A stretch of 64,000 nucleotides of DNA, from assembly GCA_010015805.1 (NCBI GenBank), contig ML978136.1:1-64000 (forward strand), in the 5' to 3' direction. Below the pieces are notes generated by a model that did not search any database, was not told the DNA's origin, and saw nothing but the letters and a program-made list of their open reading frames with translations. The stretch is from Rhizodiscina lignyota (lineage: Eukaryota). The position numbers were made by a program, and so were the translations under genes. This document shows, in pieces, positions 4,879 to 55,954 of the stretch. Numbering within the stretch: position 1 is the stretch's first letter; every line of letters begins with the position of its first letter.

Positions 4879-5817
4879 ATGATTGTCAAGCTCTCTTTGG
4901 TTGCCATTTTTGGGGCGTGTTTGGCGTTCTGGGGAAGTCAGAATGCCATAATGAGCTTGACCCACGCTCTATTGAAACAGTTCGAAGACCTTCACCGCAA
5001 TGAGAAATGCTGCTGACTTATCGAAGAACGGCAGGCTCCACTCATTTGCCATCGTGTCAACATCATCCGTACATGACCAGAATACTCTCCCACAATCCTC
5101 TAAGTATCTACATTGAGGACTTCCTGACAACGGAAGAGAGACTACATCTACAAAATTTGGCGTGCGGACTTTCAATCAAATTACCCGCTCATGACAAGAT
5201 ACTGACGAACATCTTTCAGTGTGCCATTATTCCAAGCATCCACGGTCGGCAATTTTGATACAAAAGGCACGCAGTCGGGGGTGAAAAGCTCCTTCAGGAA
5301 CAGCTCGTCAGCCAAATTACATGAGCACGAGGAGGATCCAGTCATAACCTGCATCAAACAGCGAGCTGCTGCTTTCCAAGGATACATGAGTCCCGACAAC
5401 GTTGAGCCTCTGGTGGTCGTACGCTACCAGCCTGGTCAATTCTACGACTACCATAATGACTGGTTTCCCGTGCCAGCGAGATTCGATGGCCACTACTACA
5501 ACAGAGTTAGCAGCTTCTTCGTCTACTTGGACGACAACTGCGAAGGCGGAGCAACTCATTTCCCCATGTTCCCGAAGGTTGGGTGGGAAGAGGGCGACTC
5601 TCGTCAAACATGGTGCGACCACATAGAATGCGACCCTACTATCAAAGGCGTGGCGGTCAAATCCAAGGCTGGAAATGCTGTGTTCTGGATAAATTTGAAT
5701 GGTGATACTCAGGGCGATAACAGGGCGATTCACTCTGGGCTTCCAGTTAAGAATGGCACGAAGTATGGGTTGAATATATTCTCGCTTAGTATGGTGCCAT
5801 ACATCCCGGAATCTTAA
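4879..5817 (+). CDS. Prolyl 4-hydroxylase alpha-subunit-like 2OG-Fe(II) oxygenase, ~3 exons
   Basis: N-terminal signal/anchor; RILSHNPLSIYIEDFLT, VVRYQPGQFYDYHND (HxD), FFVYL..EGGATHF, HSGLPV..GTKY (distal His and 2OG-binding Lys). Confidence 0.85.
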
Positions 5818-6462
5818 CTTAGATCAGATCGACGAAGTGGAGTTTGACAGACATAGGGAGTGTGGAGTTGTCAACTCAGTTTTATAGCTTTCATGGTCGG
5901 TACTGGACGTTCTTCGTCCAAGTGTTCGTCGCAATAAGGCTGTGTCATCCGTCAATGGACTTAACAACAAATTCATTACTTTGTAGGCTAGTCATTAGGT
6001 AGTCGTGGTGCCGGCTTCAGGGTTGCTCCATCAATATTGGAGGACGATGTTGTAGACGTGATGAAGTGAAGTTGCGGAGAGGAGAAGAGTCAGAGGTGCA
6101 CGGTGTTCTTCAGCTAGAGTATGGCCGACCACACCATCATTCCAAATTTCCAAGTTCCAACCTCAACTCAACAATGGATCCGGCTCAACCCAAGTGTGTC
6201 AATTCCTATGAAATGAAAACCTTTACGGCGATTGTTCGAGAGAGGACTCGGAGAAGATTCACTGCTGCCTCTGGTTCATATATCGGAGCGCCAAATCCCT
6301 AAATTTGAATACCTCCGGCGAAGGATCAGACAACACTGCCTCAACGATGGCTCAACTGGGTTTCAAGTAGGAAGCACGTGGGTGCAGTATCTCAGATAGT
6401 CTTTCTTTTCCTTCTCCGAACATCATCCATGTCACCCACTCTGTGCATAACTCAAGTACTGC

Positions 6463-6899
6463 GATGCTTTTCACAGGGTCTCTCATTGTAGCGGTCGTTC
6501 TCAGCCTCGCCGGGGCGGTCTCATCACGGAAGCGAGACAACCCTCCACTATTCAAGTTCCCTCCGGAGTATCTCCTTGATACTAATAATGCCACTGATCA
6601 TGGATGCATCGTCAATGAGACTCGGCTTGTGCTACAGCTCGACTTCTCCCCATTCGCAGTGAACGAGTCGTGGTTCGGAATACATTCAAGGCTGGTGAGT
6701 TGGGATGTTGAATTACATCCTCTGCTGTTCATTGGATACTGACACTATGAACAAGATATATGATCTCAGCATCGACACCTTCGCTCTCAACCCGAACGAG
6801 AACGATCTGCCACCCGTCGTGTCTGGACTATTCCCGAGCGATACGACGAACATTCTCCTGAATATCACGTTCCTTTTTACGCCCAAAAAGAGCAATTGA
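6463..6899 (+). CDS. Small secreted hypothetical protein, 2 exons
   Basis: Signal peptide MLFTGSLIVAVVLSLAGAVSS followed by RKR; intron GTGAGT (6695)..CTGAC..AAG joins in frame. Confidence 0.5.
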
Positions 6900-7855
6900 T
6901 ATGTTGGAGTCGACACCCATCCACCACACTTGACGAATCATGCTCTTACCTTTGGGTGAAGCCATGTAACCAGTAACTTAAATCTCGCTGGCAGCCACAG
7001 GTTAAGGTTATGGTATGGAATGGAGGCTGATGCACAAGGGAATTCGCTCGCAGTGACGTTGGCCTTTTGCATCTATGAAACCGAATCTAGAGAGAAAGAA
7101 AGCTAGAATAGCACCTTGCCTGCATTTACTACGAGGTATTGGCATCTGGTTACGCCGGTCCCGATAATTGGGCCGTTCCAAGAAATAGGAAGTCGTCAGG
7201 CACTTTCCGTGTTTGCAAAACTGCATAATATCAGCCACGCCATTAACAAGCGAGCGAGAAGGTATCTGCTATATCTTGTTCCTCGCTGTTCGAAACGTCG
7301 ACTATTATAGGCCGAGGTTGTGATGTACCTCTGTAGTCGGGTAATCTTGTTTCGACTTGCGGGCCGCACCCTGTTTTAACCTTGACTCCATTTCCATTCA
7401 ATTGGCAACCTCGGATCGAGACAGTTCATTACGAGCCTTATTAAAGGTTTGGAAGGAAAAGTATCCACCTGCATTCTCCAACCCAGCTTCTTCCCGCCAA
7501 TCATAAATATCGATCGATCTCGTCCGTAGTGGCGAATCCTCCGCACAGCCCATCGCACGCATGGGGCCAAATTGCCCTCCTCGTCCAGCGCTTTCAACCC
7601 CCAATAACCAGAACGCCGATACAGAAATCCCATCACCATGCGGACCGGCGAGCTGAACTTCGGATGGGCGCCTCCCGGGTTGAGAATGGCGCATAGCCGC
7701 AACAGCCTTGCAGTAAACATGCAGATTCGTGGAACTTGATGTTTGTATTAAGAGCCTTGTCGGACGCCGATTCAACATTAGGTAGTCGTTCATTATCTTC
7801 TTCTGTCCTTCTATCATGCTCATTCACATTTCCTTGTCGTCGTTTTAAAGCAAGC

Positions 7856-9818
7856 ATGACTCGAGTGAATTTGTTTCTGTTTTGCGTTTTGTCAGGCTTG
7901 TCTCAGAGTGCTCAAACATGGGCCCAGGATATGGGAGATGAGCTTCGCAATGGATTCATCCGCAGGTTCTATCATGGTTGTCAGTCCTCCAAGCACTAGA
8001 CAATTCCGATATGCAGTTGTTGATCACTTGTCGCATTAGCTTTTATCATCGGCAATGGGCTCTACATCGACGGCGGCGAGTATGTGGTCAAGATCGGCGA
8101 CAAAAATCAACAGGCGGTCTGTGAGTTACTCTAACTTCCAGAATGATAATGAAGATTTATCTATTTATGCTAATCAACGCAGTGAACCAAACAATCGCCA
8201 TCGATCTGAGCCAGTCATTCTCCACCAACGCGTCAAGTAACGGCGGAGACATAGCCATGACCTTCATAGACAAGGGCCAGTGCCCAAACTTCAACGATGT
8301 CGTCTTTTGGGAAGACCCCTCTAATGGAGTTGCGTATGCTTTTGGAGGAGGTCTTAGCCTCGCCCCAAGCGCGGTTGGTGGTAGTCCTCCTTCTGAAGCG
8401 CTATGGAAGTTCACGCAAGATTCGGGCAGCTTGGGAGGATCTTGGAACCAAGTCTTTTCCAGCAGCAACATGGGCTGGCAAAATGTTCGACGATCAACGA
8501 ATGGTCTGTCTGGGAGTGGGGCCAGCGGGGGCTTCTTTCTCGGCGGTTTATACAACAACCTCTCCAGCCCAGAAGCGCAGTCTGATCTAGACTTTCCGTC
8601 GCAAGGGATGGAGATATTCAACTACTCTACCCAGAGCTTGTCGTATCTTCCAGCGTATAACTATTCATCAACGGGGACTGGAGTTGCCGGGGGTCTGGCA
8701 TATGTTCCAACATGGGGATCGGCAGGATTAGTGGTCGCGCTCGGAGGTCAAGTTGCTATCGACGAAAATGCCTGGGACGGTGGATCGTACAGATCTTTGG
8801 GGAACATTTCTGTTTTCGATCCCGCGTCCGGGTCTTGGTATGCTCAGATGGCTTCTGGTGATATTCCGAGCAACCGAAGCAAATTTTGCACTGTCGGCGC
8901 TCGTGGTGGTGACAATAGTACTTACGGTATGCCGAGCTCCTCCCATTACATTTCGACTTGCTGAAGGACACAGAGATCTTCGTATACGGAGGACGATATG
9001 GACCAGATCCGCTTGGTCAGAACCCTGACTCTGACCTGATCGCGGTAAATAAGATGTTGGATGAGGTCTATGTTCTTTCTATACCTGCGTTCCAGTGGTT
9101 CAAGGCAAACTATACATCAGAAGACCTACGTATGCGACACAATTGCCATGCCATCGGCAGACAGATGATAAGCGTCGGGGGCTTCAATCAAGCGCACCCG
9201 GCCATTGACAACGCTCTTCCGATTTACGAGAACAGCACGTATTGGCTCGCGATTAACGATAAAGACAAATATGCACAGGGTATCAAAGTCTTCGACCTCA
9301 CCTCTCTTCAGTGGGCTGACCAGTGGGTTCATACAACACCAAGTTATGACTTGCCAACAGTAGTACAGCAGTTCTACTCCAACCGTAAGAGCAAGTACCC
9401 CGACTCGTGGTCCGATTCAAAACTACAATCAATCTTCGAGAAGACTAGCACCAAAACGTCAACTTCGCCATCACCGTCACCATCCGGTAAAGGCAAGGAC
9501 TCAGGCTCTCACGATCACGCAGGCTTAATCGCCGGATGCATAGTTGGTGGTGTCTTGATTCTCGCTCTCATTGTCGCAATCACTTGGTGTATCTCGGGTC
9601 GCAGAACGCCCACCGGCCAGGGCTTTTTCCGCACGTCTGATGCTGTCGGTATATCAAGACATGTTGCGTACAACCATGGCGGCCAACCCTCTACGGAGCT
9701 TGAGGGATTAGATCGTACGATCCATGAAGTGGACGTACCACCTGCGGAACTGGGCTCAAAAGTTGAGCTAAGGCATGAGCTTCCGAGGACTGAGCTTCCT
9801 AGAGAGCTGCCTGGTTGA
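7856..9818 (+). CDS. Kelch/galactose-oxidase-propeller single-pass membrane protein, ~4 exons
   Basis: Signal peptide; LYIDGGE, YAFGG, FFLGG, VALGG, FVYGG, ISVGG kelch blades; S/T/P linker; TM helix GLIAGCIVGGVLILALIVAITWCI; tail with repeated EL(P/G) motifs. Confidence 0.85.
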
Positions 9819-14742: not shown

Positions 14743-17596
14743 TCATGTATTACGAGGACATCCCAGTAGCCTGGTCCCAGCAAGGGGAGGATTAATGGGC
14801 TCGCAGTGGCCATGAGAAACTGCTCGATTGAACACAAGCCCCCTTCCCCCCCGTTTGTTGGTTGGGAGTGCACTCAAGCCCGCGCAAGTTGTTTCTGGTG
14901 TGCATGAATATGTTCCCAGGACGTTCTCGCAAAGAGGCAGACACACACTTTTCGTTATGGTCTTAACGCCGCAACCGATCTCGACATTCTGGCATACTCC
15001 TCCTCGTCCCGGCGGGCACCTGCCGGACTGGCACAGTTGGAGCTGCCCTCCTAGGATCGGTGAGCCGTCATCGAGACTGCCTGTGATATTGACAGTAAAG
15101 TCCGCATCACTGGTCTCGAGGAGGCCCAATTCAGCAGACGGGACCTGAATATCGATGGAAGGAGGACCTTGCGCAGGCACGGTTTTACCTGCCGAAATAT
15201 AACTGGTAGAATCAGCAACGCAGAGGGATTGATCGTCCCAGATAGCGCTCGCTGCGTCTCGCCAGAGCCTGGACATGTTGTAAACATTCGCGACGGTATA
15301 CTGCCGCATATTAGCGATTTTCGGCCACTCTTGCTCTTCCATGGTCGACTCACATAGATGCGGCAATCTGCTGGCAGATACTTGAACTGTAGCGGCGTAT
15401 CATCGTCCTTCCGGACTTGATCGCGCAAAGTGAAGCCGGCAAAGTTCGTGAAGATTCCAGGATCTCGCACTTGCGGCAGAGTGCTGTTTGCTGTGTCATT
15501 CACCAACTGTGCGAGACTAAAATCATAGTCGAGCGAGTCGGCCCAATAAGCTATCGCGCCTCGACTACCACTGACTGCTTGCATAGGTCCTTTCGTTGGC
15601 CGACCTCCCGCAACAACGGTCCGTACATGTCCTTGGGTAGTCATCATTTCTGCGTAGAGCGCACAAGTTGAAGAGCAGAGCCCATCGGTAAGCTATGACA
15701 CAATAGATCAGCAGGCCTGCACTATCTCCTCCGATAGCTACAAACTTACAAGGATAATGTTCTCAGCTTTGAAAGGGTTCTGAACTGTCGGATCGACACT
15801 ATGCGTGCTGTCGAAGAAATAGTCGTCAAACGCTTCATCGTCGAAGATTTCACTGGTAAGGTTGTATCGCTCTGGCAACGAGAAAAGGTCGCCATGATGC
15901 TCCCGCGGCCCATAGAACTCTGGCCACGAGGAGAAGTTTTTTCCCGTTTCTGCATCCAGGCGATCGGTTACAACCCATTCGCTTGCTGCCAGGTCCTCGT
16001 AGTAAAAGTCGTACAAATCATCGCCCGGAGACAGGGAGGACCAAAAGTCCGTAGTTGTACCTCCCAGTACATTTGCCAGATAGTGGTCACGCCGTCTGCT
16101 TGCTGCATATGGCTCAGTGCGAGGGAAGAATTGCATGAATGTATCCTGAAATTAGGTACAGCAAGTTAGTGCAGTTCCAGGTGTAGTATTTGCGCCACGG
16201 GGTAACTTACAAACGCCAATACCGGAGTCCCGCCTGTGTTCTGCTGGAGGTCGATAATTACGTGCTCAAGCTTCGCCTTTTGAGCAGAGTCTATGAATTT
16301 CGTAACCGTCTTGGAAAAGTTCCCAATGTTGTCGCCGAATTGATCAAAGCTCGGGATACTGAGGACCGCTGTGGAAATATCGTGAAGAAAATAACCTGTC
16401 ACGATGCCGCCTCCAGCTATAGATAGATCCAGTTGTACGACGTCGGGATCGGAGGGATATGCGTGATAACTAGCCTCATACCAGGACGGCTTGGAGCTGC
16501 TACTTGATCCAGAACCATCACTGTCATCGTCATCGCTTCCTCCCGAGCAGCTGCTATCGTCTGCGGATCCGTTGTACGATGCCGGTAACAGGCCAAGCAC
16601 GAAATAATTATAGAAATCACCTCCTGTTTCAAGTGGACCAGTGTTGTAAGGGTTATTATAGATAGCAAGCCAATGCAAGGGCCATTCGGTGCCGTTCTTG
16701 AAGCCAAATGTGAGATTGTCTCCCGGATAGAATGTTGCGCCACCGCCAAATACATTTACGCCGGCTTGGATGTCCTGAGCCGGGCTCGCGAATAATTGAT
16801 TCCAGTCTGCATGTGGCTCAAGCGTGCCTTGAGAATTGAGCGCAGCAAATCGCGTTAGGTAGTCAACCACATTTTCCCCATTGATGGAAATAATGGGAGA
16901 TGGTTTCCATTCGTCAGATGTGGTCGCCACTATATCGTCTGAAGAAAAGTTAGTTTATTCATTCCCTCATATGTTGTGTATGTACAGTACCCCAAATGTA
17001 AACTTGCGGCTCTTGTTTCCCGTCAATCGAGACCGATGAAAGGTATACTGGACTTGCGAAAGAGAACGCCGAAAGAACGCCAGCACTGAGATCGACATGC
17101 ATGTCGTGCATCGAATAGATGAGAGTCTGCAAGTTTGCCTCGAATTCATACTGATTCTTGAAGTATCCATCGGTGCTGTTTTGTTGGATTTGGGCTAGAC
17201 CTTCCAGAACATCGACTTTGGGTTGCTGATACCCCTCTGGAGGATCACGCAAATAGGCCAATGTGCTTTGAAACTGAATCGTGGTGTTGTAATACTCTAT
17301 AAAGCGAGCAGCGACGGCGGAATTGAACGGTACACTCGCTAGACACTGATATGCGTCGCGGGCGTAGAAGACATATTCACAAACTAGAATTTTCGTGAGT
17401 GGAAGGTCAGAATCGTTAGTCGAACATGTCTCTCACATTCCTCAACAGTCTGAATTATGTTGCCGCAAATTGTTGGATTTGGAGCTTGAGCACTGGATGT
17501 TGCCGTGCCATGTTGTGCGAGTGGGCGAGGTGCTGGGCTCGAGACAACAAATCCTAGCAGAAAACATGCTAATGCAAAGAACGGAACAGCCGACAT
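14743..17596 (-). CDS. Secreted fungal peptidase S41 (CPAF/UstP-like) with Cys-rich C-terminus, multi-exon
   Basis: Signal peptide MSAVPFFALACFLLGFVVSS; QFQSTLAYLRDPP, IIDLQQNTGG, LTDGLCSSTC (catalytic Ser region), VVAGGRP..GPMQAVSGSRG, PLQFKYLPADCRIY. Confidence 0.85.
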
Positions 17597-17710
17597 GGCT
17601 TTTCAAACGAGTGAAAGTTTAGAACAGAGTCAAGGAAAATCAGTTGGTAGACGGTTGGTATGCATATAGAGAAGCGCATGCTCATTCTCGAATCCTCGAT
17701 TTATCCATGA

Positions 17711-17743
17711 CTCAAAAATAATTACCTCAAAAATAATTACCTC
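17711..17743. repeat. 15-bp tandem duplication (CTCAAAAATAATTAC x2)
   Basis: Perfect direct repeat read from the sequence, in the divergent promoter between the S41 and NACHT genes. Confidence 0.9.
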
Positions 17744-18289
17744 TTACGCCACGACGCGAAAGACTCTACAGCTGTACGGCGAAATGGTCATGCTGTACGT
17801 CCGTTGACCATTTGCCTCACTCAGCCCTCGCCGTTGTTGTACAAAGGCGTAAAGGATCAGTTCTAAGCTTGGTTTGCTGGGGGCTTGGCCAATCACGATC
17901 CTTGGCAAAGGGGCTCAGTGGCCCCCACTGCCGCGTGCGAATGCGAATGCCCGTGTTTGCGGTCCACATCATTTTATTGTGGCTGGACTTCCGGTCAACT
18001 GGATTATTAAGTACCAGAATGGGAAGCCGGCATGGAGTTTGCTCGGGGGTTGCCAACGAGCAGTACTCTCTGCCGCCTGCCATTATGCGGCCAGAACCCT
18101 GGCCCCCCATGGATGACACAGCCAATCCCCACAGTGAGCTTATATAAGGCTGAAACGCCGTATACACAAAGAGGTTGAACAGCCGATCGTATTCCCCTTT
18201 TAGTCCGCAAGGCGATCGATGCAAATTACTTTATCTCCGGCAAGTGACCGCTAAAGAGTCAAGGAAGAATAAGAAAGCAGAGGGTTGTG

Positions 18290-19896
18290 ATGCATCCTGC
18301 AATCGCCAATTCCTTTGAGCCCCCTTTCGACGTTTATGCAAGAGCCTGGGAATGGGTATTCCGGAGCGAGGCGTTCATATCCTGGCTAGAAGAAGGTCGC
18401 ACATGGCAGCTCCGCTGCGTTGGCCCGCCAGGCTCTGGAAAGGTATGGTACTCCTGCACATACAAGCGTGACTATATTGTAGTGATGCGGCTTTAGACGA
18501 CGCTCTCTGCGCTAGTCGTTGAGCAACTGCGAAAGGAATTCAGAGATGCCAATATCGCTGTCGCATCAATCTTCATCATAGACGACTTGGGAGGTCGCGA
18601 AGAAGCTTTCTTAGAAGAGTTCCTGGAAAGTGTCTTAAAACAACTCTCCGAATCGGCCGCCGACTCTGATTTTTCCTGTTGTATCTGCAGTAGTTATGCG
18701 GAAGCTTGCAAGCGAAACGAGAAGTTTGCTCTTCGGATTGAGATGCTGCGAAAAGCAATATACACGAGGCTTACGACTCTAAATCGCGCATTTCTAATTG
18801 TCGATGACTTCGATCGATGCAGCGCCGAGGCCGCTGCCTTCCTCGAAGATGAACTTGCAAGACTGCAACGCCACAGCGTGAAGATCATGGTCACATCACG
18901 CGTCCCATACCATAGAGTTGCGAACCAGTTCTTGTGCGAAGTCGAACTTGATGAAAACGAAATTGATCTGGAGCATGGCGGGAACCTGAGCGTGTACTGG
19001 CAGTGTGAGCGGTGTTCCGGCCTATGGATGAGCGAAGAAGATGAGTATAACATTTGCAATCAATGCAAACTAAGAGGATATACTTGTAGAACGTGGTAAG
19101 TTGTTTTCCGTATCATCGACCGTTTCCTCGCTGCAAGCGACGGAAGCAAGAGACTCTGAATATCGATAAAGGATTGGCTAACGGTCAAGTATGCTTAAGT
19201 GGCCCAGATGCAAGACTGTTCGAGCCGTACACCCACGTAGAGCTGCCGGTTCTGCTCTCTAATCGTGACATGGAATGCTTCCTGAAATGGAATTTGGAGG
19301 GTGAGCATGGAGACCTTGGGCTGCAAAGTGCGAACCAGCATAAACCACCGCCATCAGCGCTTGGAAGGGCTCTTCGAGAAGAGAGAGTAGCTGAAAACAT
19401 TGTCCAAGCCGTGGTATTTGAGTCGGAAGGGAATATCGCAATTGCCAGGACTCGCCTAGATGAGATCCACGTCGCACAAACCATCCAAGAGACCGAGCCT
19501 ATTCCAGATCGCCTATCGAGAAATCGCATAGCTATGTTCCAGGCCGGGATCTCAAGGATCAATGAACAGGCTGATGGGCGAAGAGAGCTTGGGCTAACGG
19601 CAATTTCGGCGGCAGGATCAGAATCAGGAGGAACATCGTTTCGCGAACTGAAAGAACAACTTCGAACGATAGTCCGTAAACGGAAGTCTGATGGCGCATC
19701 GGACTTGACATTGTATGAAGCGCTACACGCTGCTGCCGGATATCTGGTTGTTGACAACACCATTGAGCAGCGGGTGACTCCGTATCATACGTCCTTTTTC
19801 CTGTTTGTCAATGAGAATTACGACGAGCGCCTCTTCTTGAAAGGCATGGATCTAGGCTATGCGAGGCCCTCTCGTTCGAAAACGCTACAATTTTGA
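18290..19896 (+). CDS. Minimal NACHT/STAND NTPase (~480 aa) with internal ZZ-like zinc finger, 3 exons
   Basis: WEWVFRSEAFISW..LRCVGPPGSGK|TTLS (Walker A across intron 18443-18496), FLIVDDFD (Walker B), IMVTSR, Cys cluster WQCERC..ICNQC..TCRTC (intron 19096-19199), helical/WHD-like AAGYLVVD..YHTSF, then stop. Confidence 0.8.
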
Positions 19897-20003
19897 GGAG
19901 CCTAAGGACCAATGGGTGGAACACTCATAGATGCAATCGAGCTGTCACTAGTCGATGGTGGTGTTTGTGGAGAAGTTTTGAGTGGAGTTCGAGCCTGGAC
20001 CCA

Positions 20004-22229
20004 TCATTCAAGCCAAATCCGATATTTCCCTTCATCGTCCCTACCAGAGATGACGTGAGATTCTTCGGTGCAATATACTGTTTTCAATGTGCGAAGATCC
20101 AGTCCAGAAAACCGTAGCGAGCCTGTACGGGTAAAATAATTCGCTCCAGTTCCAGGTCCTAAAATAATGCCAACACCGGATAACACAGAGATCTCGTGTA
20201 AGTCGTCTTCCTCGTCTCCACTTGCGGCCAGGATTACGAAGTAGCATTGGCCCTCGCCAAGCGAATCTGCTTCATCTAAAAATACTTCTACGCGGCCAGC
20301 TTGAGTGTTGCAATCAGGGAACTGGAGTTTGCATTCGCCAGTGATGCAGTTGTAGGTATATGTGGTGCGTGCAACATGTGTCCATAATGCGATCGCATCG
20401 GATCTCAACCTTGGGTTTTCCACGCTTGGTTTGAGTTGGCCTATGGCGTTCTGGTTCGTTAACTTTTCCATTCTGTTGACGCTGTGGATCTTGTCGGGCT
20501 CCCTGCGCCCCAGAAATTCGTCCCAATGCCGGATTTGCATGCCCCATGATTGAAAGTCCCGCCTTTCCTTTTGCCTCAACCGAAACTGTGGATCCAGATC
20601 AAAGGCAATTTCTTTGCCGTCGTGACTCGATATGGCATACAGCCGCTCCGACGTCAAGCGATCTTGCAATTCAATTGCGCCGTCCATTGACGCCCAAGAC
20701 CAGCTTGGAGCACGCAACGGCCTAGGCCGACTACTTGTCCGACAATCAGCCACCCTCCAGGCGAGTTGCTCCTTGAAGTTCCTTTCCCACATTCCTACAC
20801 AATACTCTTCATCCAAAGCGGCGCGAACTAGCTTCGCAACACCCCATATTGCGACGAGTTTGTCACCACCGTTAGTCAAGTTACATTTTGTGTAACTTTG
20901 AACTGCTCTTTTCCAAAATTGCTCCAGTGAGTCAGTGGCTTCACCAGCTAGCGGTCCCTGTTGAGGCAAAGAGGGGTCTTGCAGTCGCTGTCGCCAATGA
21001 CGATCGGTTCCAGATATCGTGTCAATCGGTTGCGGCAGTCCTGAAGGTAATACTTCGCAGGCACTCAGGGTACCGCAATCCCAAAAGATCTGATTCTTCG
21101 AGAAGTGCAGGATTCGTGGAGCTAACATCCGCTCTTGAAACACCCAAGCTCGGGTATACAACACATTATCCAACAACTCTCTTTCCCAGTAGTCGCTTGG
21201 CACTATTCGCCAAACTGTATCCCCGAAGATCCCTAGCTTTCGGCTAGTATGATAACGAGCGAGCGAAAGTTCGCCATCACCCCTAAGGTGATCAAGATTC
21301 CTTGCGCGAAACAGACCACCGTTACGATCTCTCGAAGCAGTTGCAGCTATATTGCAATGAGAGTGTCTGTAAACCTGATCCATAAGCGGCGCTTCGTGAT
21401 GCCAGTCCGTTTCTTCAAGCTCCTGCTCTTTTGCATTCGCAGATTTATTCTTCTCTGAATGCTGCACAATGCAGAGTGAGTCGATCCAGAGGTATCTCAC
21501 GGAAAGTCGTTCGCATACTTCCAGGGCCTCCGTGAAGTTGCGATTCGAGATCTGCTCGAGAGATATCCCTTCGTTCAGGAATTGCTTGATGTTCGCAGCG
21601 GTGAGGTTGATGAATTGATTCTCCTTGACGTTACCCCAGCAATGAGAAAGCGTACAATATGGCCCCGTGATCGACATGCCTTTTGTTTCGATGAGGCGGA
21701 CGAATCCATTTCTGCGAGTGCTGAGGTCAAGAAGCCTCGTCGGCACAAAGTCCAGGTAACTTTGACGATGATTACATGTCGGGTGATGTTTGGCGCAGTT
21801 GTCTATCCATGCGGTAACTCTGGACCAAGCTGGATCCGAATTCGTGCTTTCGCCAAGATCTTCTTCCCGTACGAGATCTCCAAGGCTTCCTTCGGCAAAC
21901 AAGTAGAAGGCCCTCTCCGGAAGCCAAATATCAATATCACCCCCTGCCAGCCCTCTCACCGCGTGAATGGGTCGGAAAACAATGACAATGAAATCTTGGC
22001 TTTCCCTCGTTCGACCTGGTTTCCGGATGCTCCATCGATATAACGGTCTGTTAAAGGCTTCCACAATGCCGTGCAAATCTGCAAAAAGCCTGGAGCAGAA
22101 GACACAACCCTGAGCTTCGCTATTGCGGCTAACTGCAGACGCGCTGAGGCCGTCCGAGTTTCCATGATGGAAATCCCACGTCTTTCCAGACTCGAAGATA
22201 CACTGGGTGCAGAATCTGCATACTCTCAT
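20004..22229 (-). CDS. HET-domain (heterokaryon incompatibility) protein, 741 aa, intronless
   Basis: PTRLLDL, YCTLSHCWG, YLWIDSLCIVQ, DWHHEAPLMDQVY, TRAWVFQERMLAPRILHF, APSWSWAS. Confidence 0.95.
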   Translation of the reverse strand: MRVCRFCTQCIFESGKTWDFHHGNSDGLSASAVSRNSEAQGCVFCSRLFADLHGIVEAFNRPLYRWSIRKPGRTRESQDFIVIVFRPIHAVRGLAGGDIDIWLPERAFYLFAEGSLGDLVREEDLGESTNSDPAWSRVTAWIDNCAKHHPTCNHRQSYLDFVPTRLLDLSTRRNGFVRLIETKGMSITGPYCTLSHCWGNVKENQFINLTAANIKQFLNEGISLEQISNRNFTEALEVCERLSVRYLWIDSLCIVQHSEKNKSANAKEQELEETDWHHEAPLMDQVYRHSHCNIAATASRDRNGGLFRARNLDHLRGDGELSLARYHTSRKLGIFGDTVWRIVPSDYWERELLDNVLYTRAWVFQERMLAPRILHFSKNQIFWDCGTLSACEVLPSGLPQPIDTISGTDRHWRQRLQDPSLPQQGPLAGEATDSLEQFWKRAVQSYTKCNLTNGGDKLVAIWGVAKLVRAALDEEYCVGMWERNFKEQLAWRVADCRTSSRPRPLRAPSWSWASMDGAIELQDRLTSERLYAISSHDGKEIAFDLDPQFRLRQKERRDFQSWGMQIRHWDEFLGRREPDKIHSVNRMEKLTNQNAIGQLKPSVENPRLRSDAIALWTHVARTTYTYNCITGECKLQFPDCNTQAGRVEVFLDEADSLGEGQCYFVILAASGDEEDDLHEISVLSGVGIILGPGTGANYFTRTGSLRFSGLDLRTLKTVYCTEESHVISGRDDEGKYRIWLE

Positions 22230-36286: not shown

Positions 36287-39200
36287 TCACACCCCTCCTC
36301 CGTCACATCCCTCCTCAGTCAGTGAACAGCTCTTGAAGAAATAGCAGTCGAAATCTCTTTGCCACGTCCCATCAGGATTCTGATACCAAGATTCACGCAA
36401 GTCACGTGTCCCACCTATGCTGCCACACGTACTCCTAGTCCAATTGTCCGCTCCAGTAACCAACTCGTTATCCCCAAAAACGTTATCTGCCACGGTGTTC
36501 CTGTGGGAGCCTATCTTAATCGTCGTGGACCACCGATCTGTTGGGTTTTGCACGTTAACGTAGAGGTTATCCTTTGCGTCCTGGGCTCCGGTGTTTTTCA
36601 TAGTGCTTAACAGTATTGGGAAGGAGAGCGTAGTTCCATACTGTGGGCCAGCGATCAGAGAGCTTTGGTAGGTGTAGGCCCACCAGACAATATGCCAGTT
36701 ACCATTCTTTCCAACCCATTGTCGGAGGTGGAGGCGTAGCCAGTTTGGGTTTGGAGCATGCGCAGCATCTGTGCCTTCGCCATGTGGCGGTGGAGCTTCG
36801 GTGGAGGCTGGGTTGGTCGCCGATGGAGGCGAAGATGACGACGACTTACGCAGACTCGGGATGACGCTGAGTAGACCATTCACCTCCTCGGACTTGGTTT
36901 TGGATTGAAGAGCAGCGGGGATAAGGCTTGCCAAGACACCGGCAATGTTCGCTGAGCTCGCAGAAGTCCTTGGAGACGTAGACTTTGACACCGAGGTTCT
37001 AGATGAGGCTGTCTGAGCCCGTGAACGCCGACTTGAAGTCCTTGAAGACGTAGACATTGACACCGACGTTGTAGACGAGGTCGTCTGAGCCCGTGATCGT
37101 CGAGTTGAAGTCCTTGAAGATGTAGATTTTGACACCGACGTTGTAGACGACGCTGTCTGAGTCCGTGAACGCCGAGTTGAAGGTGCTTTGCTACGCTTGA
37201 AGCTGGATGGAACAGGACACGCAGTCTTCGTCGCTATTAGTGCGCAAACGGATGGATATCGAGATACGTACAACCTACCAACTTCAATCCGGGAGGTGTA
37301 GATGCAATCCAGGTACCATTGATTGCAACAGTGATATCTGTGGCGGACATCATATTCGTGGCTAAGTTCGCCGTTGCAGTTGCTCGCCTACGAAGGTCTG
37401 GAGATTCGTCTGAGGCGCCTGGGATGGTCATGCATCGCATACTTCACCTGTAAGTAACTCCTCTAGCAAGGAAGATAATAGACTTACAAATGGTAGACTC
37501 CGTTGTACACGCTGGGCCAATTCGTAGGAGGCGTATAGCGATAAGTATAGCCAGGTGGAACGGGGGCAAAGTTGCTTGTTCTCTGCCAGGTAAAAGCAAC
37601 AAGAAGTCGTTTAGCTGTCCTTACAAAATCACGGGGGCTAAGGTCTGTAAATGACCATTGTGGAAGACTTGCATCGATATTTCGAGGCCAATCTTCTTCA
37701 GCGCTGTTCACAGCCGCAATGGTAAACCATTGAGCTAAAACACCTGCCTGTGTCATAGTTAGCCTGAGTCCTCCGTAAACAATAGGAGTACTTACCACCG
37801 CCGGAGCGGAAAAACTAGTACCATGAGCGAGTTTAGTCCATCCAGGGTCATTTGGGTTATTTCCAGCAACACGCACGTTCCTAGATGGCGCATATATCGT
37901 TGTAGAGGCTCGAGATTGCCCGCGAGGTGTTGTTACTAAATCTAAGGCGCCATTGTTGTCAACTCCCCCGACGACAACCAAGGAATTTTGGGGTCTTTCA
38001 AAAGCTTGAGGTAAAATTTCGTTAAGATACCCTGGTGTTGTCGTGCCACTGTCGATCTTCTGAAGCCCTTCATTGCCACTGGTGACTACAACGGTAACGC
38101 CCTCGTTTTCTAGATCATTGAAATTGTCCTTTATTTGGTTGCGGTCTCGCCGCGACATCTGGTTGACTGGGAGGCCTAACAGATGATTAGTTAACTTGAT
38201 TGTCTTGATGAGGAGGCATCGTCGTTTTAGTCATACCCCAACTCATGCTCAAAACGCTTCTTTTTTGATATTGCCCAGGGTCACTTCTCACCAAATCGAG
38301 CACATGCCTCATTCCAGCGTCGAACCCTCTCCAATTCACCTTGGCTTTACGTTCGCAGCCACCGTCGCCAGGATAATCAGGATTAACGAAATCTGCTACG
38401 ACTTTGATAAGGTAAAGGCGAGAATCTGACGCAACTCCAAGAGTTGATCCTCCAGCAATGCTTGCCATTTGCGTTCCGTGCCCTTCACAGAATGTATCGC
38501 CGTTATCAAGAGTGATACGATTTCCCCGCCAGTCATCTATGGTTTCAGGTAGCGCCCCAGTCGGGTCCTTCAGTATGGCACTGTTTCCGATGACTCGCAC
38601 GGTGGGAGCTCCTCCTCGACGATTTTGCAGTTCCTGTCCCCTATTAGTGAACCCTGGAAGGTTTTACTCTAAAACATAATACTCGGTTACGCACATTATG
38701 CTGTACATTGAAACCGCTGTCAAGGACGAATATAGTAGCGCCATAGCCGTTGGACTTGTCGAAACGATAAGGCGTGGTAATTGGTACGTTAGGGGCTTGC
38801 GAGACAAAGCGCAAATGACCCTCGCTGGGATCTCGTTCTAGCAAAATCGGATCGTCTTCAACGGGAGTGTCATCTCGTTTTCGCCTTGCACCCGTGACGT
38901 TTGTAGCGGTGACACTTCCGAAGAATACGTCATCTACATCAAATTCCACCAGTGGTGCACAACAGGCCACGAAATCCTGGCTTTGGACGTATTCACTCTC
39001 TTCTTCGGTCAAGTCAACGTTATACCCTTGGCTATCTCGGAAGTAACTACGGGCGCCACTCTTTCCCGCATCCCAGAGATGCTTCGAAAGAAAAGAATCG
39101 AAAGTATCATTTGAGGTCCCGAATTTGGTAACGAAGCCGTACGGTGAACGTACTACCGATGGAGATGGGCTAACTGTCTCGGGCGCTGCTTTCGTGGGAC

Positions 39201-40795
39201 TCTGTATCGTACTCGAAGTGTTGGTAGAAGTGATAATCGGGATATTGGGCTGAGCACTGTCCCAGTCAAACGCGGCAAAATCGTGGAGCGATTTCGTATT
39301 CAATGCGCCGAGGATGAAAAGGGTGCTGCCTGCGAGAGCACCGCTTGCGGTTGCTGGAGATCCCTGTAGGAAAAATGACCTGAGCAGGTCTGTCGCTTGT
39401 GACGCTATTTCCGGCGAGGTGCTCGTAAGACCCTTTGCTAGATTCTTCATTGTGGAGATCCAATTTTGCGCTATGCTAGTCTGGGGATAGGCATCAAAAA
39501 TTCTTCGAGAGGCGGTAGAAGTAACCTCTTGGCCAGTGGAGTCAAGCTCCGAAAGCTCGATACCAGACCCGGCCAACGCATCACTTAGTCCATTCGCGAG
39601 TGTGTCAGCAGATGAAGATGCACCTTTGATGACTCCCTGCAGTTGGCCAGCGAATTGAGCAGCATCTTCTTTAATGCTTCCTGAAAACCATCCTTTGGCC
39701 GTGCTTTCGGCGCTGGCGGCAGCCTTTGCCACGTCACCCGCAGCTTTGGATAGACCCTTTGCAGCATTGAAGAGACAACCTAGCCCCATGCAGTGGTGGC
39801 CTTTTGATTGAGGTGACCTCGATCCGACGGAGATAGTCTTTCCCGCCGACGTAAGCGTGGTACTCTGGCCAGCAAGTGGTACAGTAAAATGAGCATCACC
39901 AATAGCCACCATCGATGGCCCGAGTAACAGGGATGAAACCCCAGAGGGGTGTAAAAGAGGGATTAGAACGGTTCCAGAGATTGGAAGAGCGTATGTTGTG
40001 TCGTCGAATGTGACAAGTTTCTGCACATATGGAGCATTATCTGTGCTTGAAGCAGAACTGGTTGGACTATGCGAGGCCAAGGCGGAGGTCGTGGTGGTGA
40101 AGGCCGTCGTATGCCCGGCATCTCCACCATCTGAAGTCTCCGATCGTAAGGATGATGTAAGAAGCTTAGATTCGGAGGAAGTTTTCCTGATATGAGAGCT
40201 TGATGAAGTCAAAGGACTATTCAACGCCGAGGATGGCACCAAAGAAGTCGTATCGGGCACACTCGGCGATGAGGAGCTTGCTCTCGACCCTGCACCCACT
40301 GGAACGGTAGGTCGTTTCGTCATAGTGGTGTTACTGTGGGCAGCACGCGAAGGCCTTAAAGTTATAGTTGGATGTGACATTCCGGTGAGCGATGGTATCG
40401 ATGGCCGAGGGTGCCGACCAGTGCCACGCGATTGCACTGTTGAGTTGGTTACGTTGAAAGGCGCATTCGAAGCTGTCGATGAAAGTGGCAGCCTTCTCGA
40501 AGAGGAGAGTGCCACGGGAGAAGAAGACGGTATCTTTGGCACAGCTTCAGATAGATGCGGCACAGTCGCGATGCCTGACGTAGTGCCAAGAAGTGGAAAT
40601 GTTGTGTGATTCGCCGGTAAGGCTGCAGAGAACCCCTTAGATGGAGAAGAGACCGAGGCGGCCGACTGAGACGGCGAAGAACGCACGTCTGAGCGGCATG
40701 TGACGAGAATAGACAATAGGACGACAAGAAATATCTATATCACTCCGTTAGAAGAAGAATATGTGCTCTCTCCGGCGGCGTACGAATTTAAACAT
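36287..40795 (-). CDS. Large secreted modular subtilisin-like (S8) peptidase, multi-exon
   Basis: Microexon ATGTTTAAATTC plus exon 2 gives signal peptide MFKFIFLVVLLSILVTC; catalytic triad VLDSG / EGHGTQMASIAGG / HGTSFSAPAV; VTSGN oxyanion motif; RRKR site before the catalytic domain. Confidence 0.85.
36963..37178. repeat. Coding tandem repeat, 3 x 72 bp (24-aa S/T/R-rich units)
   Basis: Units start GAAGTCCTTG at 36963, 37035 and 37107; they encode variants of STRRSRTQTASSTTSVSKSTSSRT on the minus strand. Confidence 0.9.
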
Positions 40796-50705: not shown

Positions 50706-50771
50706 TGGAGAGTCGCGTGGCCTTGCGTTCTCCGGTAACGGGCCTTGTCTGCTGGTAGGTCGACATTCATC

Positions 50772-53570: not shown

Positions 53571-55954
53571 TGCTTTTTTGTTTTCCTTTTCGATTTCTCT
53601 CATTATTCCTCTGTTTACATAGCGAACATGTTATATGCACCAAATTTATTATTTTTAACATATGTTTTTGCCGGCCCTTTCAGTGGATTAGTCTAGTGTC
53701 GGTCAATGCAAAATTATACTGGATGCCTCAACCGTCCCCCAATTGGCTACTGGCACAGGAAACTCTTCATATAGAAAAATGACACGCCCAGTAACTCAGT
53801 GTGCATAATAACTCGGTGCTTGCCATGAGCATCGCGGCATCAGCAATGTCTTCTGGCTCACTGAATCCTTTACTGTTCAATGGATGTGCTACACAGCCTT
53901 TTTAAGTCTCTCCGCAAATTCCCCGTTAAGCCTACATAGAGGCTTGATGAGTACTCTAAGATAATGAAATGTAGCATCAAAACGTCAGTGTCTTGCCTCT
54001 CGTGCAGTTTGGAGCATGAGACAATCGACGGCGCTCGTCGTTACTATATTGAATGCTATGTGTATGGATGAGCAGACTGCACTGCACATTCCGCCTCTAT
54101 TTTCTTGGTCGAGGTTCCCATGACCTCATATAAGCCAAATGCTTCTCACGATTTCCATATCATACAATTATGTCCTGCACAGTGGTATCGTTGCCAAGTA
54201 TCCACCCCCTCATATTGTCACTTCCGCCCCGCTTTGTTGTCAAAGGTATCCAAGCTCCTAGGGAGCCATCGCATGGCGGCATCATATTGTCCATGTCCCA
54301 TGCTGAAGCCACGTTTGGCTTTCACAAAGATGGCATTGTCTTTGCCGTATTGACGCCGGATGAGCTCGTAGAGGTATAATCAATTTCCGTATGTGAGCGA
54401 ATACCGTCTGCTCTACCGGTTGACACGTGAATGATAAGGTAGGGTTGGAATAGAGATCAAAGGAGTGGATTCGCGCGTATGCGGAGGCGTATGTGAGCGC
54501 GATTGTACGCCGCGGACTGGATTCGGGGCTGGGAATGCGGACTGTGCGGTTGTTGGGACGCGTGAAAGGCATGATTTGGTTAGCAGATACTTGTAGAATT
54601 GACATTAAGGAGACCGTCCACTACAATTGTAAGAGAATAAAAGCAGAGGACTGAAATTGTGAACTCGACCAAGAGGAGAGTTTGAGATACTGTACTCCAT
54701 GTGGCGTTTAAATTGCAATACTTTCCAGAATGGTGCATAAACGAGATCATAAAGGGAGCCATTAGCACAATTGAAGCAATAATCGTTTCCACACTCTCTA
54801 AACAGGCCTTGGACATGAAGCGGCACCAAAGTCCTATCCAAAACGGAGATATCTACCCAGCTGCATGTGGATCTGGAGGCGCAATGTCCCGATGACTAAA
54901 CACGTTGAGTCCACGTGACAATGATCGACCCTCCAATCCAGTCCCAATGCAGGCGTCTCCACATCACCGCCAAAGAGCAAATCCACCAAGGCAACCTCGT
55001 AATTAGCATTCTGCTGCCACAGATGTCATGATTAGTGGGTGCAAGTGAAGAGGAAGAGGGCATTCTCGTCGAGAGGTCTACGACAGGCATTGCCACCAAG
55101 CCGTGAACATGAAAAGTCACCAGAGCAACGTTCGGGTATTGAGGCTATCGAGGGTGATTGCGATAGAATAAAAACAACATCATGTCGATGAAAAGGTCGA
55201 CGTGGCACGTCAAAAGCGTGGGCATTGTTGGCTGCAGAGAGTGAATCGGGGCACCCTCCCAAGGCTGGGCCGGCAAGCGGGCACGCACGTGCTTCTCCAC
55301 GATCGCCAGGACGATGGCAGCGAGTTTATCGGCAATAAGGTTTTAAGCCGCATCGCCATGCGCGTACCTTGCAGACGGCTCGTGGCAGTTTGGTTCGCGG
55401 AACGGCGAAGGGCAACATGTTTGGGGATCTGTAGATGGTCTCAGAGTGGGCTGGGGACGGGCAATATGTATATCAATCGAGTCGCAAACGCCGTTTCAGC
55501 ATGCGCACGAGACTTTTGAATAGTTTTGGGCGCGAAAAAGTGCGTTATTGTTGTTGCAATTGTTTTGGCGTTCGATTGTCGAAGCACGCTTATTTTGGTG
55601 CGCAGTCGCGCCGGCGTTGCGTTGTTTTGCCTAGCGCGCCAAGCCTGGTCGGTGCACACCCTGCCGCCTGCCACCCAAGTCTTCTCCCGCGCTCGCGCAG
55701 CTCCATCTCCAGAATCCTCCACTTTCCAAACACCTGCTGCACAAAAACTCTTCCCAAAAACCTCACTTCTTTCCTGCACTCTCGCACACTCTCGCACACT
55801 TCTGCCACGCATACGTGTACAGTAGTAGAGCGTGTCTTTGCACTCGCCGCTTGACTTTTGTATATCAACACTCGCGTCACTCGACGCTGCTCGCACGCAC
55901 TCCACTACTTCACCACACGTTCACAACAAAACACCACACAACACCATTCCCCCA

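Follow-up and report, generated by a model that had tools for sequence, protein, structure and literature searches.

Several described systems share features with the locus analysed here. In the HNWD proteins of Podospora (HET-E, HET-D, HET-R), a HET death domain is combined with a NACHT-clan NOD, as far as the available text of the sources goes (PMC4986451, PMC13449251). These proteins form one chain, with HET at the N-terminus and a hypervariable WD40 sensor. In the NWD2/HET-S system, the excerpted account describes an effector that acts in trans and is encoded next to the NOD gene (PMC9815663); the effector is of the HeLo type and signalling uses an amyloid motif. The Podospora het-B locus encodes Bh, which carries HET and a lectin fold, and an adjacent PII-like partner, Bp. 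It is therefore an example of a non-NLR HET protein with a conserved, tightly linked partner gene, and HET lineages with a PSWSW motif are listed among such pairs in the portion of the source available (PMC10890737). Finally, in plant paired NLRs, two linked genes split the tasks of one receptor complex, according to the accessible part of PMC12258605.

The locus lies in the first 64,000 nucleotides of contig ML978136.1 of Rhizodiscina lignyota, a stretch referred to below as the window. It consists of a gene for a NOD protein and a gene for a HET protein, placed tail to tail. Like HNWD, it brings together a HET domain and a NACHT-clan NOD, but on two chains and without repeats. It resembles het-B in its make-up, with a STAND NTPase instead of a PII-like protein as the partner. 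Plant pairs are built from two complete NLRs arranged head to head, whereas here one member is a bare NOD. We suggest, with a rough probability of 0.6, that the two genes encode the halves of a single NLR-like switch/effector machine, which is held together non-covalently and without an amyloid motif.

A bare NOD and its HET neighbour

The NOD gene (18290..19896, forward strand, ATG at 18290) is predicted to encode a NOD-only NTPase of 482 aa in three exons. Exon 1 (18290..18442, residues 1-51) is supported by a match to Pfam NPHP3_N and ends with GPPGSGK (nt 18422-18442), its last codon being that of the Walker A lysine K51. Intron 1 (18443..18496, 54 nt, GTATGG..TTTAG) precedes exon 2 (18497..19095, residue 52 to part of 251), which bears Walker B (nt 18791-18814) along with the sensor motif TSR and a ZZ-like cysteine cluster, C198..C248, starting from nt 18935. 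After intron 2 (19096..19199, 104 nt, GTAAGT..CTAAC..AG), exon 3 (19200..19896, residues 251-482 and the stop codon) supplies the STAND module's helical and winged-helix part. Both introns are of the GT..AG type, and their positions are conserved, as tblastn alignments of the relatives L002, L007, L012, L013, L015 and L021 are interrupted at both sites (query residues ~51-53 and ~249-257). The public R. lignyota protein P0001 (NA57DRAFT_80750) has the same length as this model and is identical to it over exon 2.

The initial annotation had seen in this gene a NACHT-type NTPase of about 480 aa with intact Walker motifs, and profile, motifs and fold all place the protein among the NACHT-clan STAND NTPases. 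NPHP3_N (PF24883) was matched with E 2e-19 (70.8 bits, cut-off 24.8), while the NACHT profile (PF05729) gave 21.2 bits, under its cut-off of 26.7; a relative, P0049, clears that profile with 28.1 bits. Walker A (GPPGSGKT, residues 45-52), Walker B (LIVDDFD, with D154, D155 and D157) and the sensor TSR with R186 are invariant or nearly so among 30 aligned relatives. The structure model is confident (pLDDT 89.6, pTM 0.89) and its best Foldseek match is CED-4 (4m9s, E 1.2e-6, TM about 0.4), followed by Cdc6/Orc1, the plant NLRs NRC and RPP1, Apaf-1 and NLRP7 (E 1e-6 to 1e-4), with TM values that are low throughout (0.3-0.43). CED-4 is a STAND NOD that lacks sensor repeats and is controlled by a bound protein. 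Sequence identity to these apoptosome ATPases, CED-4 and Apaf-1, is only about 10%, and the structural match indicates a shared fold, not a shared function; CED-4 differs further from the protein studied here in bearing a CARD and recruiting a caspase.

The P-loop is preceded by 44 residues that match no Pfam family, in agreement with the earlier view that the protein starts just before this loop and has no N-terminal effector or signalling domain. The DNA upstream of the gene is a divergent promoter region toward another gene. Likewise, Pfam detected no ANK, WD40 or TPR repeats in P0001, again as annotated. Measured against the canonical tripartite fungal NLR, the protein thus lacks both the N-terminal effector and the C-terminal repeats. 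Such a protein could be the remnant of a NACHT-ANK receptor that has lost its ends, and more distant relatives, 12 of the 31 proteins scanned, do have the order N-terminal domain-NACHT-ANK. We regard decay of this kind as extremely improbable, however, since stand-alone members of the family (430-670 aa) span the full length of the query, the NOD motifs are intact, the structure model is confident, the orthologues are under purifying selection and the intron positions are conserved.

The initial annotation also assigned a ZZ element to this protein. The cysteine pattern behind it (C198, C221, C224, C238, C241 and C248) is invariant or nearly so among relatives, and the aligned stretch of fused relatives described below matches Pfam ZZ, with E 1.6e-5 in P0068, 1.5e-6 in P0064 and a range of 1.5e-6 to 3e-4 over P0068, P0064, P0041 and P0075. 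A Pfam ZZ (PF00569) match in the R. lignyota protein itself, on the other hand, was not obtained, either with P0001 at E <= 0.01 or with exon 2 at E <= 1, and the ZZ assignment is confirmed only in part.

On the reverse strand, an intronless ORF of 741 aa (20004..22229) encodes the HET protein, and the two convergent stop codons are separated by a spacer of 107 bp (19897..20003); both features stand as first annotated. The HET protein begins with a domain of 125 residues (21855..22229, reverse strand, as are all features of this gene) with the pattern CxxC..HH..CxxC. Its predicted contact with NOD is formed by the strands YRWSIR..RES..VFR (residues 64-108, nt 21906-22040). The Pfam HET domain (PF06985, residues 191-366, 21132..21659) was detected with E 1e-26 and 94.5 bits, and the blocks LSHCWG, WIDSLCI, GGLFR and WVFQERM are invariant or nearly so across homologues. 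A PSWSW motif, which marks TOL and PIN-C in the passages of PMC10890737 at hand, occupies residues 508-512 (20694..20708). These features place the protein in the HET family, TOL/PIN-C type. The beta-rich C-terminal domain (about residues 600-741, 20007..20432) is its most variable part; the public model P0006 spans ORF residues 1-550 only, but homologues align through residue 741. No recognisable sensor domain was found in either the NOD or the HET protein.

The likeness of this HET domain to TIR appears weak in structural comparisons. The best match among known structures was to nucleoside deoxyribosyltransferases (Z 4.7), and the TIR structures SARM1 (Z 4.2), MAL (4.0), SpbK (3.7) and ThsB (3.4) scored lower still, all of them below 8, where a match may mean a common arrangement only. 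Foldseek returned nothing for HET at E <= 0.001. The invariant glutamates include E279, E366 and E392, which are at most candidates for the TIR catalytic glutamate.

Linkage, fusion and co-divergence of the two genes

A HET homologue was the next gene in each of the 13 metagenome loci whose sequence continued for more than 850 bp beyond the match to NOD. After removal of near-copies these represent 8 distinct loci, 7 with convergent genes and 1 with both on the same strand. Orientation is strongly conserved here, while it varies for Bh/Bp. In three Dothideomycetes, Pseudovirgaria, Lophium and Clathrospora, the GenBank accessions of the NOD and HET homologues follow one another directly, and in Delitschia and Massarina both were placed on a contig of equal size. 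Linkage is not universal and looks looser in Colletotrichum: a 168-kb contig of C. eremochloae carries both, with accessions that are 6 apart, and the NOD contig of C. sublineola, C. sojae, C. falcatum and Bogoriella differs in size from those of the HET matches listed. Because this check covered HET proteins among the best 120 matches, the Colletotrichum and Bogoriella species may have an adjacent HET paralogue.

In Pleosporales the two proteins occur as one. Single proteins of 1136-1330 aa contain all of NOD, followed by a linker of about 100-140 aa and then HET in full, from its residue 1-3. Examples recognised with Pfam are P0049 (Paraphaeosphaeria), P0055 (Periconia), P0068 (Alternaria), P0140, P0151 and P0182; the fusions match NOD and HET end to end (BLASTP E 1e-26 to 1e-35) and account for 15 among the top 150 representatives of the NOD family. 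Both full-length proteins are thus found in one polypeptide elsewhere, the relationship known as a Rosetta stone. Some of the fusions (P0036, P0056 and P0063) sit on contigs of only 4-9 kb from metagenome or run assemblies and are taken to be probable single ORFs. The fused proteins have the same two modules in the same order and full-length homology to the pair, but they are covalently joined. Their order, NOD first and then a complete TOL-type HET protein, also distinguishes them from HNWD, where HET is N-terminal. 'Split' is a fair word for the R. lignyota genes, although fission and fusion are both possible directions of the change.

The initial annotation had also named a lack of linkage in other genomes as the outcome that would speak against the pair, and had proposed testing whether the two proteins co-evolve. 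The metagenome loci, the three genera with consecutive accessions and the fusions all point the other way on the former. As for the latter, the NOD and HET trees are congruent, with a Mantel r of 0.724 over 29 pairs and 0.662 over the 12 split pairs alone (in both cases reached by 0 of 2000 permutations), and their sub-clades agree. Between L002 and L007, dN/dS in five segments was 0.18-0.31 and no stop codons were present, a sign of purifying selection; judged from these sequences, both genes are functional in relatives.

A HET gene with a tightly linked partner is also the make-up of het-B, het-c/pin-c and un-24/het-6, as listed in the consulted part of PMC10890737, and the TOL/PIN-C type with PSWSW fits this company. 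The pair might accordingly be an allorecognition (het) locus, where heterokaryon incompatibility would arise from non-allelic interaction of divergent haplotypes, as for Bh/Bp. We find this rather unlikely. The near-haplotypes L002 and L007 show no excess divergence, their mismatches being uniform (12-31 per 500 nt) over flanks and pair alike, although with n=2 this is a very weak test. Furthermore, the pair is kept as orthologues with congruent trees over several orders, which implies an older, conserved function; such a function has been argued for Bh/Bp as well, in the available sections of PMC10890737.

Upstream of NOD, the window contains a gene for an apparently secreted S41 peptidase (5' part at 16169..17596, reverse strand, with its 3' end further left), whose N-terminus is hydrophobic and whose PDZ domain is CPAF-like. 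The S41 gene points away from the NOD gene, and the divergent region between the S41 ATG (17596, reverse strand) and the NOD ATG (17597..18289) has two TGGCCCCC sites, at 17919 and 18100. Of the 10 loci where 1.5 kb or more of upstream DNA was available, 9 showed the same placement. This conserved neighbour was absent from the initial annotation.

Because the S41 gene is also conserved upstream, the loci are not independent insertions and all appear to be the same ancestral block. Short intergenic distances, with a spacer of only 107 bp here, and a shared divergent promoter could preserve such a block without protein-level coupling, in which case two genes that do not work together would merely have escaped rearrangement. 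We think that neutral synteny of this kind hardly accounts for the data: another clade has the two genes as a single fused ORF, the flanks beyond the block are unconserved between distinct loci (except for the sister loci L016 and L020), and a complex of the two proteins is predicted, with a docking loop found only where they are separate. Since NOD and HET are kept together in many fungi and fused in others, they almost certainly work as one unit, and linkage, fusion, tree agreement and complex prediction argue that their pairing is not due to chance, in line with the original idea of a linked pair with its effector in trans.

A predicted docking interface

The complex prediction suggested at the outset gave an ipSAE of 0.67 for NOD with HET (runs 0.61, 0.67 and 0.69), compared to 0.00 for the best of 3 controls. 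The pass mark is reached by 51 of 78 solved complexes and by 2 of 108 mismatched pairs. The runs share at least 59% of contacts, with partner pLDDT of at least 69; the prediction was made from single sequences, with alignments unused. A passing model lends support to binding of NOD to HET, short of showing it.

At the core of the predicted docking surface is a NOD loop with the motif W-N-LE-G-EHGDLGL..KPPPSALG (residues 281-306, 19288..19365, forward strand), which is predicted to contact the N-terminal domain of HET. Of 42 stand-alone relatives with a length of 400 aa or more, 29 have the loop motif, which is absent from all 15 fused forms and all 12 ANK-type NLR relatives. On the HET side, split forms retain the contacted motif YRWxIR..RE..TFR, whereas the 12 fused forms examined show it degraded. 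NOD interface residues are better conserved than the rest of the protein (their mean is reached by 5 of 10,000 random sets), whereas those of HET do not stand above the rest of residues 1-515 (4524 of 10,000).

In NWD2/HET-S, the effector is coupled to its NOD by an amyloid motif. Here the effector is a HET protein, the NOD is repeat-less and the contact is predicted between folded domains. BLASTP of NOD against HET at word size 2, which has little power for motifs some 20 residues long, revealed no short amyloid-type motif common to the two (best E 3.3, termini unmatched), which accords with the absence of an evident amyloid motif reported initially.

Besides the loop, the predicted interface touches the P-loop (residues 47-48 and 52) and Walker B (residue 155) of NOD, as a lock on the closed state would. 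NOD might therefore act as a constitutive inhibitor, an antidote or guard that clamps the N-terminal domain of HET, with death following its loss, modification or displacement. The control of repeat-less CED-4, the best structural match, by a bound partner offers a parallel, and a toxin-antidote pair would need tight linkage such as that of these convergent genes. Nevertheless, the fused proteins, with the loop missing and the HET motif degraded, would leave the attached death domain unclamped, and a passive clamp would not need the conserved Walker A, Walker B and sensor motifs. We consider such a brake conceivable, yet improbable.

In the preferred reading, that of a switch/effector machine, the 482-aa protein would be a STAND nucleotide switch built from a NACHT-clan NBD together with helical and winged-helix domains and bearing an inserted ZZ-like zinc knot, and the 741-aa protein would be a cell-death protein of the TOL/PIN-C type. 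The Cys/His-rich N-terminal beta domain of HET would dock on loop 281-306 and adjacent helices, beside the nucleotide pocket. Some trigger, perhaps read by the variable C-terminal domain of HET or by the ZZ knot, would shift the nucleotide state of NOD, and subsequent oligomerisation of NOD may bring the TIR-like HET domains together and start cell death.

A broader possibility, which we put forward only tentatively, is that a bare NOD recruits HET via a dedicated docking loop and that the pair belongs to a three-gene block with S41. The predicted contact would run from folded domain to folded domain, with neither amyloid nor covalent link, and the loop would be present only with separate genes and dispensable in fusions. 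The S41 gene, which shares its promoter region with NOD, could couple an extracellular protease to the intracellular death switch. If true, recruitment of HET in this manner would represent a way of signalling that has yet to be described for fungal STAND proteins.

Meaning for HET domains and fungal NLR-like proteins

Few domains of filamentous fungi are as abundant and as variable as HET. How it becomes activated and kills is unknown, according to the part of PMC10890737 available. The pair may serve as a minimal natural system for this problem: as it comprises two proteins with no repeat domain and a defined predicted interface, activation of HET by a nucleotide switch could be reconstituted and mutated, and the fused relatives provide a natural 'covalent control'.

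In the literature we found no description of this NACHT–HET split pair or of the NOD-first fusion. The fused proteins carry the names 'HET-domain-containing protein' or 'hypothetical' only, and the label 'TOL protein' or 'ankyrin repeat-containing protein' is attached to several members. Such proteins would be overlooked or misnamed by surveys that demand an N-terminal domain together with repeats at the C-terminus, or by those scoring only repeats that follow the NOD. The catalogue of NLR-like architectures is widened by two forms, namely NOD-first fusions with a whole HET protein and NOD-only proteins with an effector that would act in trans without amyloid.

Gene models and the NOD family

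The NOD gene, encoding a 482-aa NACHT-type NTPase, has three exons on the forward strand (18290-18442, 18497-19095 and 19200-19896), and its product is exactly the public protein P0001 (NA57DRAFT_80750) of Rhizodiscina lignyota (Dothideomycetes, Aulographales), with which exon 2 shares 100% identity. Both introns have GT..AG ends, and their sites coincide with breaks in the tblastn alignments of relatives. The convergent HET gene is a 741-aa ORF without an intron on the reverse strand (20004..22229), and 107 bp separate the two stop codons. As the exon model, the ORF and the stop spacing all agree with them, the coordinates and gene description of the initial annotation are correct. One DNA assembly, X1, contains this stretch as a single contig of identical sequence and is possibly the source of the window. 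The public HET model P0006 comprises residues 1-550 only; the last 191 codons of the ORF (20004-20579, reverse strand) lie outside it, yet homologues align to residue 741, and the whole 741-codon ORF was therefore taken as the HET gene. A Pfam scan of 50 ORFs of the window did not add any NLR or HET gene to this pair. Among the other large ORFs, Pfam recognized an AAA ATPase domain in one of 1574 aa (55829-60550, forward) and a GH67 alpha-glucuronidase in another (50739-53288, forward), and at E <= 1e-5 it matched nothing in a third of 696 aa (38647-40734, reverse).

P0001 matches Pfam NPHP3_N (E 2e-19), a NACHT-clan P-loop domain found in many fungal NLRs, and scores slightly under the cut-off of the Pfam NACHT model. 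P0001 has intact Walker A and Walker B motifs and an intact TSR arginine, all conserved across the 30 relatives of the larger NOD alignment. Pfam detected neither an N-terminal effector domain nor a repeat domain in P0001. Invariant cysteines (C198 to C248) occupy the position of the Pfam ZZ match of the fused relatives described below, although P0001 itself falls below the threshold of the ZZ profile. In the part of a survey of Sordariales NLRs covered here, 17 ZZ fingers are placed after the NB domain (PMC12258605). The AlphaFold model of the NOD protein (pLDDT 89.6, pTM 0.89) had its best PDB matches, by Foldseek, in CED-4, Cdc6/Orc1, plant NLRs, Apaf-1 and NLRP7.

HMMER, run in full against 1.84 billion representatives, returned 1705 relatives of the NOD protein at E <= 0.001, 53 of them at E <= 1e-30. 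The nearest stand alone, are about 430-670 aa long and span the entire query; they are followed by long proteins in which the NOD module precedes a HET domain. Among the best 150 of the 1705 relatives there are 15 such fusions, counted over those Pfam-scanned here or carrying a precomputed HET mark. Remoter relatives (E 1e-18 to 1e-27) are ordinary receptors of the N-domain-NACHT-ANK type (12/31 in one Pfam-scanned set). The existence of a full-length stand-alone family means that the 482-aa protein belongs to a conserved short form and argues against reading it as a broken receptor.

Many stand-alone relatives (P0126, P0133, P0138, P0139, P0128, P0137, P0152, P0156 and others) extend into a low-complexity tail ending in a conserved [LI]PRSxT, then ..RRGTxxW and sometimes FGLG; these short motifs look like basophilic kinase sites. 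The NOD protein of the window has no C-terminal tail and terminates directly after PSRSKTLQF. Several NOD-only Colletotrichum proteins (P0300, P0309, P0310, P0132, P0311 and P0315) carry the name 'TOL protein' or 'ankyrin repeat-containing protein' in their sources; in P0132, which was Pfam-scanned, neither HET nor ANK was found.

The HET protein and its fused relatives

The HET protein begins with a Cys/His-rich beta domain (residues 1-125), followed by the HET domain (residues 191-366; Pfam, E 1e-26), in which all conserved blocks are present, a helical region with a PSWSW motif C-terminal of it, and a variable, beta-rich domain at the C-terminal end. PSWSW is given as a marker of the TOL/PIN-C lineage in the portion of PMC10890737 consulted. 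The uncut 741-aa model had no Foldseek match in the PDB at E <= 0.001, and in a wide VIA structure search the resemblance of the HET domain fold to TIR domains and nucleoside deoxyribosyltransferases was weak (Z 3.4-4.7). The HET-TIR relation itself is taken from the sections covered of PMC4986451 and PMC10890737.

Fused NOD-HET proteins are 1136-1330 aa long and occur, among other named examples, in Alternaria, Paraphaeosphaeria, Periconia and Corynespora, all Pleosporales. Their N-terminal part aligns with full-length P0001 (BLASTP E 1e-26 to 1e-35), their C-terminal part aligns with the HET protein of the window from residue 1-3 on, and a linker of about 100-140 aa joins the two. The split pair and the fused proteins stand in a classical Rosetta-stone relation. 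The NOD module comes first in these fusions, whereas Podospora HET-E has the reverse order. The idea that the fused forms had lost the N-terminal domain of the HET protein proved wrong, as it is kept from residue 1-3 with its motif degraded.

Fused and split forms are cleanly separated, with a single change in each of the NOD and HET trees. In the NOD tree rooted on eight ANK-type NLRs, the 12 split forms make up one clade (SH-aLRT 96), nested in a weakly supported grade of fused forms (SH-aLRT 86-89). On the other hand, the wider taxonomic spread of the split forms, together with the relic motif in the fused ones, suggests the opposite direction of change. In one metagenome locus, L016 (3280-7911), and likewise in L017, the two genes lie on the same strand as separate ORFs about 620 bp apart (in L016, the NOD ORF ends at 4892 and the HET ORF covers 5515-7911); this lineage is nested among convergent pairs. 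Its arrangement is one from which a fusion could arise.

Linkage, the surrounding block and co-divergence

Metagenome contigs were scanned with the 9-sequence NOD alignment, which returned 22 loci; in nine, the contig stops within 850 bp past the NOD match, and these were left out of the linkage count. A HET homologue is the next gene in all 13 remaining loci. With near-identical copies removed, eight loci are left, seven convergent like the window and one (L016/L017) same-strand. Consecutive GenBank protein accessions for NOD and HET were found in Pseudovirgaria hyperparasitica, Lophium mytilinum and Clathrospora elynae, and we read them as adjacent genes from GenBank's usual numbering along a record, while in Delitschia and Massarina the two proteins come from same-sized contigs. 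Together with the window, the linked pairs span Aulographales, Acrospermales, Mytilinidiales and Gloniales, as well as Clathrospora, Delitschia and Massarina, all three Pleosporales. However, the NOD and HET accessions of Colletotrichum eremochloae differ by six, both genes being on a single 168-kb contig, and the NOD genes of C. sublineola, C. sojae, C. falcatum and Bogoriella are on contigs that differ in size from those of their HET matches among the best 120 HET matches. The Colletotrichum and Bogoriella cases count against universal linkage.

On its other side, the NOD gene diverges from a gene for an S41 peptidase with a CPAF-like PDZ domain (16169-17596, reverse strand, continuing left to about 14750), whose product has a hydrophobic N-terminus with a signal-peptide-like start (MSAVPFFALACFLLGFVVS...). 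The two genes diverge from a common 693-bp intergenic region. An S41 homologue is conserved in position and orientation in 9/10 loci whose sequence extends 1.5 kb or more upstream of NOD, or 6/7 distinct loci, L012 being the one without it. The S41 gene may belong to the unit as a third member, or be just an old neighbour. Its conservation beside the pair identifies the loci as one ancestral block, not independent insertions, and the argument from linkage is tempered accordingly. Outside this block, distinct loci have only fragments of 10-59 aa in common, with the exception of the sister pair L016 and L020. The three-gene block itself, however, is retained while its surroundings are not. Neutral synteny, by which the genes would simply have stayed neighbours, is disfavoured.

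Two of the four TGGCCCCC sites of the window lie inside the S41/NOD intergenic region (17919-17926 and 18100-18107, forward strand). The 8-mers GGGGGCCA and GGCCCCCA occur in five of the seven corresponding regions of relatives, a count that none of 100 mononucleotide shuffles reached. This is a candidate for a shared promoter element, with a possible resemblance to CreA-type GC boxes.

Trees of the NOD and HET segments (29 pairs) have sub-clades in common; L007, a near-copy of L002, and the partial NOD matches P0054 and P0048 were omitted from them. Patristic distances are correlated over the 29 pairs (Mantel r 0.724, 0/2000 permutations) and within the 12 split pairs alone (r 0.662, 0/2000 permutations). 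This correlation comes partly from shared descent and shows that the two genes travelled together. Between the near-haplotypes L002 and L007, dN/dS was 0.18-0.31 in five segments with zero stop codons, and gene decay is disfavoured. The same comparison, limited to two sequences, revealed no excess of polymorphism at the pair, divergence being uniform across it and its flanks; a role in allorecognition, proposed in the initial annotation, is possible but unsupported.

A predicted complex and a proposed two-chain device

The complex of the NOD protein with HET residues 1-515 was predicted in three runs, without alignments and alongside three controls. The ipSAE was 0.67 (0.61, 0.67 and 0.69), and all three controls gave 0.00; the mark applied to this score is attained by 51/78 solved complexes and 2/108 mismatched pairs. 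Contact agreement between runs was at least 59%, and partner pLDDT at least 69. The model backs NOD-HET binding without demonstrating it.

The predicted interface involves NOD residues 285-286, 300-304, 331-344 and 358-370, as well as residues near the nucleotide site (12-14, 47-48, 52 and 155), and HET residues 65-89, 102-107, 345 and 400-404. Conservation is higher at the NOD interface residues than elsewhere in the protein (5/10,000 random sets). A NOD loop, W-[DN]-LE-x-EHGDLGL...KPPxSxLG, is present as a strict pattern in 29 of the 42 stand-alone relatives that are 400 aa or longer, and in none of 15 fused forms or 12 ANK-type relatives. Similarly, split forms retain the HET strands YRWxIR..RE..TFR, which have degraded in all 12 fused forms inspected. 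The predicted interface fits the NOD-side conservation, the split-only loop and the HET-strand pattern. At odds with it, HET-side interface residues are not conserved above the rest of residues 1-515 (4524/10,000 random sets).

Receptors of the HET-NACHT-WD type are already known, as are HET genes that have a linked partner (het-B and others) and adjacent NLR/effector pairs signalling through amyloid motifs. BLASTP detected no amyloid-like motif common to the NOD and HET proteins, in line with the initial annotation. In the literature searched, largely the full text of articles, neither a conserved NOD-only/HET pair nor a NOD-first NACHT-ZZ-HET fusion was found described, nor did 12/17 supplementary files of PMC12258605 contain a match to PF00569, zf-ZZ, NACHT-HET or PF06985. 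The case for the conserved pair and the NOD-first fusion is entirely computational.

The most economical account of the pair is a two-chain NLR-like device, in which the NOD protein would be a nucleotide-driven switch carrying the HET effector through its docking loop. Oligomerisation, activation of HET by proximity and cell death would follow, judging by the established behaviour of STAND proteins and TIR domains. The main rival is a brake, in which the NOD protein would clamp HET. If the pair is a two-chain device, its trigger might be sensed by the ZZ-like knot of the NOD protein or, as the analogy with BH in het-B would suggest, by the variable domain at the C-terminus of the HET protein.
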